A stretch of 64,000 nt of DNA from NCBI RefSeq assembly GCF_006345805.1, contig NC_043006.1, positions 46,128,001 through 46,192,000 of the forward strand. Direction: 5' to 3'. How positions within the stretch are numbered: the stretch's first letter is position 1; each line of letters opens with the position of its first letter. The stretch comes from Octopus sinensis. Taxonomy: Eukaryota. Shown here in pieces: positions 14,283 through 44,846 of this stretch. The notes beneath the pieces are model-generated. The model did no database searches. It saw nothing but the letters and a program-made list of their open reading frames with translations, and was not told the origin of the DNA. A program made the position numbers and the translations under genes.

Positions 14283-14700
14283 AGGCAACGAGCTGGCAGA
14301 AACGTTAGTACGCCGGGCGAAATGCTTAGCGGTATTTTGTCTGCCGTTACGTTCTGAGTTCAAATTCCACAGAGGTCGACTTTGCCTTTCATACTTTCGG
14401 GGTCGATAAATTAAGTATCAGTTACACACTGGGGGCGATGTAATCGACTTAATCCTTTTTTCTGTCCTTGTTTGTCCTCTCTGTATTTAGCCCCTTGTGG
14501 GTAGTAAAGAAATAGGTATTTCGTTTGCCGTTACGTTCTAAGTTCAAATTAAACCGCGGTCGACTTTGTCTTTCATACTTTCTGGGCCGATTAAATAAGT
14601 ATCAGTTATGCACTGGGGTCGATATAATCGACTTAATCCGTTTTTCTGTCCTTGTTTGTCCCCTCTGTGTTTAGCCCCTTGTGGGTAGTAAAGAAATAAG
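14283..14700 (+). mobile_element. Family A SINE, 1.5-mer
   Basis: The body is repeated after the junction AAAGAAATAGGTATTTCG at ~14506-14523. Confidence 0.9.
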
Positions 14701-21018: not shown

Positions 21019-21118
21019 NNNNNNNNNNNNNNNNNNNNNNNNNNNNNNNNNNNNNNNNNNNNNNNNNNNNNNNNNNNNNNNNNNNNNNNNNNNNNNNNNN
21101 NNNNNNNNNNNNNNNNNN
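21019..21118. other. Assembly gap (100 N)
   Basis: Run of N. Confidence 1.
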
Positions 21119-42234: not shown

Positions 42235-42266
<32 letters not shown>

Positions 42267-42498
42267 CTATATAATTAATCAATATAGGGTGGAGAAAAAA
42301 ATTTTGTAGAATTCTTTCTGCCACCAGCGGCCTAGTAGGAAAAAATTAAATAGTCATAGACCATTTTTAAGTTCAACATCAACAATCAAGGAACGGCCAT
42401 AATAGGCCATTCACCCACTAGAAATACAGCCAAAGCTTCAACCGCAAATAAAGATCAATTCCGTAAACAGGAGAAAATTTAAAAACATTTACCCTGTA

Positions 42499-42604
42499 AT
42501 TTCTTGTACGATGCACCGTTTCGTCTGCTGTTTAATGTAAACTAACCTGATTAAATTAAATCAAGCCAATCTTCCATAGGCCCTCAGATTCTTCAGCAAG
42601 AAAT
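42499..42604 (-). ncRNA. Type I hammerhead ribozyme (array copy C)
   Basis: Reverse complement of 43593-43696. Confidence 0.8.
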
Positions 42605-43103
42605 AGCCAAGTCGGAACAGATATTTTCACGAGGCATTTCCGACACTGCCACGGTAATATCTGACCTAAAATTTTCAAATCGTCGCACTCGCGCCAAATT
42701 TATCGGCAGCAAATAAATATAAGCCGTCGATTCCATTACGGAATTAACCAGAAAATTCATAATTAATCAATATAGGGTGGAGAAAAAAATTTTGTAGAAT
42801 TCTTTCTGCCACCAGCGGCCTAGTAGGAAAAAATTAAATAGTCATAGACCATTTTTAAGTTCAACATCAACAATCAAGGAACGGCCATAATAGGCCATTC
42901 ACCCACTAGAAATAACAGCCAAAGCTTCAACCCTATATTGATTAATTATGAATTTTCTGGTTAATTCCGTAATGGAATCGACGGCTTATATTTATTTGCT
43001 GCCGATAAATTTGGCGCGAGTGCGACGATTTGAAAATTTTAGGTCAGATATTACCGTGGCAGTGTCGGAAATGCCTCGTGAAAATATCTGTTCCGACTTG
43101 GCT

Positions 43104-43210
43104 ATTTCTTGCTGAAGAATCTGAGGGCCTATGGAAGATTGGCTTGATTTAATTTAATCAGGTTAGTTTACCATTAAACAGCAGAGGAAACGGTGCATCG
43201 TACAAGAAAT
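43104..43210 (+). ncRNA. Type I hammerhead ribozyme (array copy A)
   Basis: Stem I ATTTCTTG/CAAGAAAT; CTGAAGA; stem II TCTG/CAGA; GAAA; stem III CGG-TGCA-TCG; GTA cleavage triplet ending at 43202. Confidence 0.8.
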
Positions 43211-43592
43211 TACAGGTAAATGTTTTTTTAAATTTTCTCCTGTTTACGGAATTGATCTTTATTTGCGGTTGAAGCTTTGGCTGTTATTCTAGTGGTGAAT
43301 GGCCTATTATGGCCGTTCCTTGATTGTTGATGTTGAACTTAAAAATGGTCTATGACTATTTAATTTTTTCCTACTAGGCCGCTGGTGGCAGAAAGAATTC
43401 TACAAAATTTTTTTCTCCACCCTATATTGATTAATTATGAATTTTCTGGTTAATTCCGTAATGGAATCGACGGCTTATATTTATTTGCTGCCGATAAATT
43501 TGGCGCGAGTGCGACGATTTGAAAATTTTAGGTCAGATATTACCGTGGCAGTGTCGGAAATGCCTCGTGAAAATATCTGTTCCGACTTGGCT

Positions 43593-43696
43593 ATTTCTTG
43601 CTGAAGAATCTGAGGCCTATGGAAGATTGGCTTGATTAATTTAATCAGGTTAGTTTACCATTAACAGCAGACGAAACGGTGCATCGTACAAGAAAT
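43593..43696 (+). ncRNA. Type I hammerhead ribozyme (array copy B)
   Basis: Same fold; CTGAAGA at 43601-43607, GAAA at 43673-43676, predicted cleavage after A43688. Confidence 0.82.
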
Positions 43697-44222
43697 TACA
43701 GGGTATGTTTTTTTAAATTTTCTCCTGTTTACGGAATTGATCTTTATTTGCGGTTGAAGCTTTGGCTGTTATTTCTAGTGGGTGAATGGCCTATTATGGC
43801 CGTTCCTTGATTGTTGATATATATATATATATATATACATACACACATACATATATATGTATAAACATATGCATGCAGTCATATATATATATGTACTTAC
43901 ATACATACATGCATACATACATATATATACATATATATATACATATATATATATATATATGTGTATATATTCATATATATATATATGTGTGTGTATGTGT
44001 ATGTGTGTATGTGTGTGTGTGTGTCTATGTTAGTGTGTGTGTTTGTCCCCCCAACGTCGCTTGATCACCGATGCTGGTGTGTTTACGTCCCCGTAATCTA
44101 GCAGTTCGGCAAAAGATACCGATAGAATAATACTAGGCTTACAAAGAATAAGTCCTGGGTTCGATTTGCTCGATTTGCTCCAGCATGGCTGCAGTCAAAT
44201 GACTGAAACAAGTAAAAGAGTG

Positions 44223-44282
<60 letters not shown>

Positions 44283-44469: not shown

Positions 44470-44846
44470 GTGGAGGAGCAATGACCCAGTGGTTAGGGCA
44501 GCGGACTCGCGGTCGTAGGATCGCTGTTTCGATTCCCAGACCGGGCGTTGTGAGTGTTTATTGAGCGAAAACACCTAAAGCTCCATGAAGCTCCGGCAGG
44601 GATGGTGGTGATCCCTGCTGTACTCTTTCACCACAACTTTCTCTCACTCTTACTTCCTGTTTCTGTTGTACCTGTATTTCAAAGGGCCGGCCTTGTCACC
44701 CTCTGTGTCACGCTGAATATCCCCGAGAACTACGTTAAGGGTACACGTGTCTGTGGAATGCTCAGCCACTTACACGTTAATTTCACGAGCAGGCTGTTCC
44801 GTTGATCGGATCAACCGGAACCCTCGTCGTCGTAACCGACGGAGTG
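44470..44846 (+). mobile_element. Family C SINE with tail 2
   Basis: Family C head plus CCTGTATTTCAAAGGGCC..GAGAACTACGTTAAGG..ACCGACGGAGTG tail. Confidence 0.9.

Follow-up and report, generated by a model that had tools for sequence, protein, structure and literature searches.

A retrozyme-like family of Octopus sinensis whose insertions in (TA)n mostly pair two inverted arms, each with its own fixed end

The window, a 64,000-nucleotide stretch of the Octopus sinensis genome (contig NC_043006.1), holds a retrozyme-like element at 42271-43818 with (TA)n tracts on both sides, and this element belongs to a family of several hundred copies that is abundant, young, ORF-less and dispersed. Its insertions are mostly pairs of inverted arms that end outward at two fixed positions of the repeat unit, one type of end per arm. 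Judged by sequence, the family appears to act like a non-autonomous Penelope-like element (PLE), and it has the defining traits of a non-LTR retrozyme apart from the G-C pair at 10.1-11.1 of the ribozyme. We consider it probable that the family is a non-autonomous retrozyme, the RNA of which is cut, probably circularized, and copied by a borrowed Penelope-type RT from two internal start sites. The kind of element is already known (metazoan non-LTR retrozyme), and it bears a clear Penelope-type twin-start footprint with a 107-nt tail. Mobilization of animal retrozymes is still at the hypothesis stage, and the family offers hundreds of near-clonal events, start sites that are precise to the base, and a natural A-U versus A·C ribozyme pair.

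Organization of the Element

Self-comparison resolves the element into two inverted arms of one ~490-nt unit, with units 97.5-98.7% alike. Unit positions are numbered from the predicted ribozyme cut, which places start site A at 129 and start site B at 236. The parts are as follows.

42235..42270: left (TA)n target tract
42271..42932, minus strand: arm B, 662 nt; 3′ end at unit position 236, abutting the left TA tract; 5′ end at position 65
42930..42932: inversion junction, a 3-nt microhomology common to both arms; BLAST overlap of 6
42930..43818, plus strand: arm A, 889 nt; 3′ end at unit position 129, abutting the right TA tract
43817..43838: right (TA)n target tract
43203..43688, plus strand: cut-to-cut monomer, 486 nt, the predicted circular RNA unit
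43332..43438, plus strand: tail, 107 nt, from start site A (43331) to start site B (43438)

The longest stop-free frames within the element reach at most 57 aa, and the three element frames tested have no Pfam match. An earlier note on this stretch had described near-identical, ORF-less units between (TA)n tracts, and this is borne out. It had also read the units as one array; the tandem repeats are real, but a single tandem run is wrong, since two inverted arms meet at 42930-42932. Donor-like (43213-43221) and acceptor-like (43366-43378) splice motifs flank start site A. No joint that would fit splicing appears in contigs from four further runs (organism codes A, B, and C; guessed to be RNA). 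Introns are often present in the pLTRs of PLEs.

Family Size and Insertion Architecture

The element DNA has at least 182 matches in the 2.72-Gb genome (best 39 of 1086 candidates scored), with 90-100% identity among the 150 matches listed. Exact patterns recovered at least 430 ribozyme 3′ halves of one subtype, at least 451 A ends followed by TA, and at least 769 B ends followed by TA; the reversed control was 0 for each of the two ends. One hundred insertions were mapped, namely the window element and those at 38 best-match loci, 40 loci picked by the A end (one of which has two insertions), and 20 picked by the B end, with four stray pieces excluded.

Eighty of the 100 are plain two-arm inversions whose 3′ ends both face outward. 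In 72 of these, one end lies at 118-131 (A) and one at 233-240 (B), an off-class end being found in the other 8, and no like-end pair (0 A+A, 0 B+B) occurs among the 80. TA is present on both sides in 71. The A+B pairing also holds in 19 of 20 of the B-end-picked set, which was mostly without a nearby exact A match. The 20 single-orientation insertions include some that are cut by a gap or by the edge of the fetched sequence and some with a short inverted stub missed by BLAST. The common ends lie at AU or GU, which could pair with a (TA)n primer.

The BLAST junctions of the 72 A+B insertions comprise 34 overlaps of 1-11 nt, 11 blunt joints, 25 with extra letters and 2 long overlaps, counted without a chance control. 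At one locus (L021:4015-4108) the junction contains ~94 nt of stuttered copies of one short unit segment, which suggests repeated re-priming during joining. The lengths of the two arms correlate (rho 0.48), and in 11 of the 72 the points at which the two arms stop differ by at most 5 nt on the unit, compared with 2.5 expected by permutation (p 5e-5). These 11 palindromic centers are what favors the view that the inversions arose as errors of long-read assembly or by a single cDNA simply folding back on itself, and self-priming has been proposed for Adineta PLEs in the available text of Arkhipova (2013; PMC3846280). We find that view hardly credible, as in 37 of the 72 arm A is longer than a fold-back copy of arm B could be, the excess being >300 nt in 12, the junctions differ from locus to locus, the two ends are of different fixed types, and an opposite-strand joint is also present in one contig of run X1. 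Another possibility is that a monomer inserted and was then expanded locally by unequal crossing-over, as discussed for vertebrate retrozymes (Li et al., 2026; 10.64898/2026.07.22.740005). This accounts for homogeneous tandem units in general, yet it leaves unexplained two inverted arms with one haplotype, fixed ends and correlated lengths, and it is in our estimate very unlikely.

The insertions have the signature of PLE insertion, with an inverted 5′-truncated arm, a tail between two ends, and a microsatellite target, but the tail is 107 nt and not 30-40. They equally show the features by which non-LTR retrozymes are recognized by sequence, that is, tandem ORF-less units with a type I hammerhead each, at least two of them consecutive, in dispersed mobile copies. 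The earlier note had held that attachment to a PLE ORF would turn the family into a pLTR array. No ORF is attached to the unit among ~123 insertions inspected, some of which were judged from flanks only, and an RT and GIY-YIG ORF between pLTRs, as in an autonomous PLE, was not found in the sampled insertions. We regard it as very unlikely that the family is pLTR debris of an autonomous PLE whose ORF-bearing copies lie outside the sample: the sample is a part of several hundred insertions, and inverted arms, tail, and microsatellite targets are PLE features (PMC8557442, available text), but no fetched copy runs on into an ORF, the units are complete and head-to-tail, up to 8 per run, and the ORF beside the L057 copy is a separate element past a TA tract. 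The best reading remains a young, PLE-linked non-LTR retrozyme, as the earlier note had it, and the two inverted arms with fixed ends link the family more directly to Penelope-type insertion than the note's argument did.

Sister Subfamilies

A pattern built from variant letters in the contigs of the other runs gave 60 matches and brought out a sister subfamily that is 77% identical, has a period of 478-489 nt, and carries a GUC site. Reading by eye gave 23 insertions for it. Fifteen of them have two arms: 11 pair A with B, 3 carry an off-class end, and one, at L197, is A+A. The loci concerned (L169-L198) hold older sister subfamilies of 75-80% identity with the GUC site, and some of these copies have C at core position 4 and a stem II hairpin that is 9-10 nt longer.

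The Hammerhead Ribozyme Motif

Three type I hammerhead motifs were located in the window.

43104..43210, plus strand: copy A, stem I 43104-43111/43203-43210; predicted cut after 43202; private G at 11.1 (43186)
43593..43696, plus strand: copy B, stem I 43593-43600/43689-43696; predicted cut after 43688
42499..42604, minus strand: copy C, predicted cut between 42507 and 42506; 10.1-11.1 is A·C

The two plus-strand motifs read as previously described, with predicted cuts 486 nt apart, and the third, which had been placed on the minus strand, is present there. The motif has the CUGANGA and GAAA boxes, a UH site, and stems I-III in type I order. Copy B features a long G·U-rich stem II extension and a self-complementary stem III and loop 3. 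In the minimum-energy fold copies B and C form the hammerhead, and copy A, with its G at 11.1, folds without stem III. Fold z-scores are -3.4 and -2.7 for the plus-strand motifs and -2.1 for the minus copy, with -1.2 for the antisense of copy A. The Rfam Hammerhead_1 model gives a weak match that stays below its gathering score (18.1 bits vs. 34, E 0.96), which is likely the cost of the long stem II insertion. Rfam microRNA matches were set aside, as they are located in the flanking microsatellite.

Covariation was assessed over 18 representatives hand-chosen across subfamilies, down to 77% identity, which are related sequences. In this set 93.4% of cells in the hammerhead helices are paired, compared with 23-45% in slid controls, and 11 of 33 pairs are altered on both sides. 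Three of five covariation measures lie above all 500 shuffles, which ignore relatedness, and the other two fall within shuffle range (49/500 and 436/500). The contigs of the four other runs likewise have partner changes in stems I, II, and III. Fold z-scores together with helix covariation across relatives indicate that the motifs are more than chance.

Position 10.1-11.1 sets the family apart. Deviation from G-C at this pair lowers the cleavage rate. The 18 representatives have A-U in 12 cases, G·U in 4, and A·C in 2, a purine-pyrimidine pair throughout, and core U4 is C in 4, all of them diverged relatives. Two of the window copies have C at 11.1, and the first plus copy has G; this G is a singleton (1 of 120 copies) and is likely damage or an assembly error. 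Counted by locus, 11.1 is T in 44 and C in 38 of 82 loci, which makes A-U the majority state, and it is uniform in 61 of 63 multi-copy loci. T also makes up nearly all of the depth in the three runs that cover 11.1. The A·C state is likely derived. The caveat of the earlier note, that the pair is A·C with G in copy A, therefore reads correctly for the window and is softer for the family, with A-U in 44/82 loci and A-U or G·U in 16/18 representatives. The G10.1-C11.1 pair is described as highly conserved in hammerheads (Cervera, 2014; PMC4209133, available text), and our literature search found no paper on A10.1 variants.

Stem III with its loop is self-complementary in both subfamilies, at -1.2 and 0 kcal/mol alone and -19.5 and -16.5 as dimers; the earlier note had described stem III as near-palindromic and able to form as a dimer. 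Because stem III is weak alone and self-complementary, dimeric hammerhead cleavage is proposed here; a dimer arrangement via stem III has been described (Cervera, 2014; PMC4209133, available text).

Fold of the Monomer

The 43203..43688 monomer, folded as a circle, has a z-score of -4.7 against 25 shuffles, and its antisense -3.0. Circular monomers of four units score -4.0 to -5.1 and the most diverged unit -1.7, with -1.8 to -4.4 for the antisense strands, so the fold z-score alone cannot choose the strand, because the antisense also scores well. The two start sites fall within one predicted domain.

43244..43461, plus strand: predicted multibranch domain; closing helix 43244-43257/43448-43461

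This conserved helix encloses both start sites, which lie in mostly unpaired stretches of the predicted fold, and the domain may be the region bound by the RT. Outside the ribozyme, pairs are mostly invariant or changed on one side, with two-sided changes in 9 of 109.

A Probable Single Template per Insertion

Substitution distance, taken from near-full units, is 0.6% within an arm (196 pairs), 1.1% between the arms of a locus (76 pairs, one locus among them having two insertions), and 2.2% between loci (13,756 pairs). A variant census was made in the 48 of 100 insertions with at least 3 calls per site. Where a variant recurs in other insertions, it is present in every unit in 158 cases, partial in 13, and confined to a single unit in 115, many of the last adjoining alignment ambiguities; private variants are fixed in 3, partial in 7, and single in 100. 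Twenty arms of at least 3 units carry 11 haplotypes. The shared variants being mostly fixed in all units, new variants therefore pass a one-unit bottleneck and reappear throughout both arms.

Of 245 crossings of the cut site, 242 show it intact. A stop peak at the cut, first suspected, was gone once reference-break bias was corrected, the stop rate being 0.068 at positions 1-30, 0.072 at 31-60, and 0.026 at 451-480. Contigs of the four other runs contain joints that go back 484-486 nt, which are compatible with tandem and circle alike.

A circle would be the simplest explanation of the one-unit bottleneck, and repeated jumping on a linear, terminally redundant RNA would fit as well. The latter belongs to a rival that we hold to be clearly less probable, yet deserving of weight: the same twin-primed PLE insertion would use a linear template, either an uncut multi-unit transcript or terminally redundant RNA with repeated RT back-jumps, and the hammerhead would be a passenger or act later. 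For PAc of Anolis, unprocessed RNA is reported as the dominant substrate, with no reads that end at the cut (PMC11167929, available text), homogeneous young source arrays would give homogeneous daughters too, and the lineage with the non-standard A·C pair is prolific (38/82 loci). However, long arms fall into 11 haplotypes with new variants fixed in all units, which calls for a one-unit bottleneck followed by re-multimerization; plain read-through cannot achieve this, and repeated jumping could. The ribozyme fold is also preserved across 77% identity, which speaks against a passenger role.

Proposed Mechanism

In the non-autonomous retrozyme that we favor, a multi-unit transcript would self-cleave, probably as a dimeric hammerhead, and the monomer would be ligated into a circle. 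A PLE endonuclease would nick both (TA)n strands, and each 3′ end would prime at AU or GU, at positions ~129 and ~236; this priming step is drawn from Frangieh (2024) and from the ends observed in the insertions. Both cDNAs would then circle the same template for 0-8 turns, passing through the cut site, and end-joining, in many cases at a short microhomology, would unite their ends. What we infer here is the cleavage, the circle, the copying by rolling circle, and the enzyme; the arms, fixed ends, A+B pairing, TA target, near-clonal units, unscarred cut, and covarying helices are read directly from the DNA.

A more specific reading, for which we see the balance as even, is that the insertions are fossils of twin-primed rolling-circle reverse transcription, in which the RT would be a dimeric enzyme of Penelope type, likely from the Hydra clade. 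It would start from both nicked (TA)n strands, at two fixed sites on one RNA circle made by the hammerhead, and lay down two divergent, multimeric arms per event. If true, the family would be direct genomic evidence on animal retrozyme movement, and the PLE tail would be the outcome of an obligate rule of one site per strand. Two published observations weigh against the cleavage step: for Anolis PAc cleavage is dispensable and uncut RNA is the main substrate (Frangieh, 2024; PMC11167929), and for only 1 of 9 predicted dimers of Xenopus retrozymes was cleavage seen in vitro (Li et al., 2026).

Penelope-Like Elements in the Same Genome

Candidate enzymes with long open frames exist in the same genome, and circle versus linear template and one start per strand are thereby directly testable. 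Neptune-like frames of 775-883 aa are present, and the two that were scanned (775 and 781 aa) have RT and GIY-YIG. The 781-aa family ends in (TA)n, and at L093:1174-4874 and at L096 an upstream 479-aa frame overlaps its RT/GIY-YIG frame; these copies have a TA target, 3′ repeated motifs and, by eye, a possible degenerate hammerhead near the end. As partners, the TA-targeting Neptune-like families were rejected, their DNA likeness to the unit being limited to AT-rich matches of 13-30 nt.

A second, young PLE family of ~900 aa is Hydra-like, with at least 287 matches (best 150 of 8592 candidates scored). It has a hammerhead and the DKT, CxxC, and CxH motifs of the Hydra clade, and its protein resembles the Neptune-like one weakly in the RT (22% over 274 aa, E 8e-4); a PDB sequence search with its ORF returned nothing meaningful. 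In (TA)n it forms inverted arms that end ~58-71 and ~220 nt after its own cut, with one end of each type in 6 of 6 two-arm insertions. An ORF-bearing PLE of this genome thus makes the same two-end footprint as the retrozyme. Across its copies at L199-L203, L057, L035, L042, and L131, the ends are ~150-165 nt apart and an Asn/Ser-rich low-complexity stretch precedes the endonuclease.

By sequence likeness the Hydra-like family did not qualify as partner (local alignment scores of 23-33 vs. shuffled means of 34-35), and the closest agreement with the unit is 16 of 17 nt at the 5′ side of the ribozyme (E 0.27). Nor did the unit have a significant match in 30 GIY-YIG loci, 20 extended loci, or 5 Hydra-like loci, the GIY-YIG candidates surveyed being the best 150 of 5029 scored. 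The Hydra-like family is a candidate partner. Further, unrelated hammerhead-like motifs occur at L095:7141-7710 (an inverted pair), L105:4155, L091:6509, L048, and L093:6505-6560, and suggest that several more retrozyme or PLE families are present in the genome.

Relation to Known Systems

The comparisons in this section refer to the available text of the papers cited. Like metazoan non-LTR retrozymes (PMC7229834; Li et al., 2026), the family consists of ORF-less tandem units with one type I hammerhead each in dispersed arrays, with GC below 45% and PLEs in the same genome. Unlike them, its arrays lie in (TA)n and consist of paired inverted arms with two fixed ends, its stem II extension is ~60 nt and G·U-rich, and the 10.1-11.1 pair varies among A-U, G·U, and A·C and is in no case G-C. 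The word "inverted" has 0 occurrences in the main text of PMC7229834, and inverted arms are absent from Li et al. (2026) from abstract to discussion. Retrozyme unit lengths of 170-400 nt are given by Cervera (2020; PMC7229834), shorter than the ~490-nt unit here; with consensus lengths of 51-972 bp in Li et al. (2026), the earlier description of the element as unusually long falls away. RT copying of circles by LINEs or PLEs has been proposed for retrozymes (Cervera, 2020; PMC7229834). In Li et al. (2026), co-occurrence and similarity to pLTRs are the arguments for a PLE origin; local amplification is suggested there, and the mechanism is described as unresolved.

PAc of Anolis nicks AT-rich DNA and extends both strands, and two internal starts bound a tail, with no strand difference reported in vitro in the available text (PMC11167929). 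The family resembles PAc and PLE insertions (PMC8557442, PMC3846280) in having two RT starts downstream of the hammerhead, an intervening tail, an inverted 5′-truncated arm, and AT-rich targets. It differs in having no ORF and a tail of 107 nt versus 30-40, and in that the tail, described as optional in PLEs, is here the rule, with one end type per arm almost without exception. As in Hydra-clade PLEs, it targets (TA)n and has a hammerhead, which is canonical in that clade (Craig, 2021). MRC1-type Chlamys elements are likewise non-autonomous PLE derivatives with multicopy head-to-tail insertions, but they share 3′-end sequence with an autonomous family and are mostly without hammerheads, neither of which holds here (Craig, 2021). 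Tandem and inverted PLE structures are named there as unexplained (Craig, 2021; PMC8557442).

No description of a paired-end two-arm structure for a retrozyme was found in the literature searched, which excludes subscription journals and Repbase, and no published description of this family was found, which supplements and Repbase, outside the search, may list. The giant squid genome paper gives 235 Rfam hammerheads in its available text.

Rest of the Window

No host gene was recognized in the window, 99 frames being without a Pfam match (98 of 170 filtered, plus one added). Assembly gap letters (100 N) occupy 21019-21118. A 184-nt unit in two copies that are 89% alike lies at 14331-14698 and resembles a dispersed repeat. 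At 44040-44225 and 44470-44600 lie pieces of short repeats, likely SINEs, which are abundant and dispersed and turn up in many of the retrieved loci.
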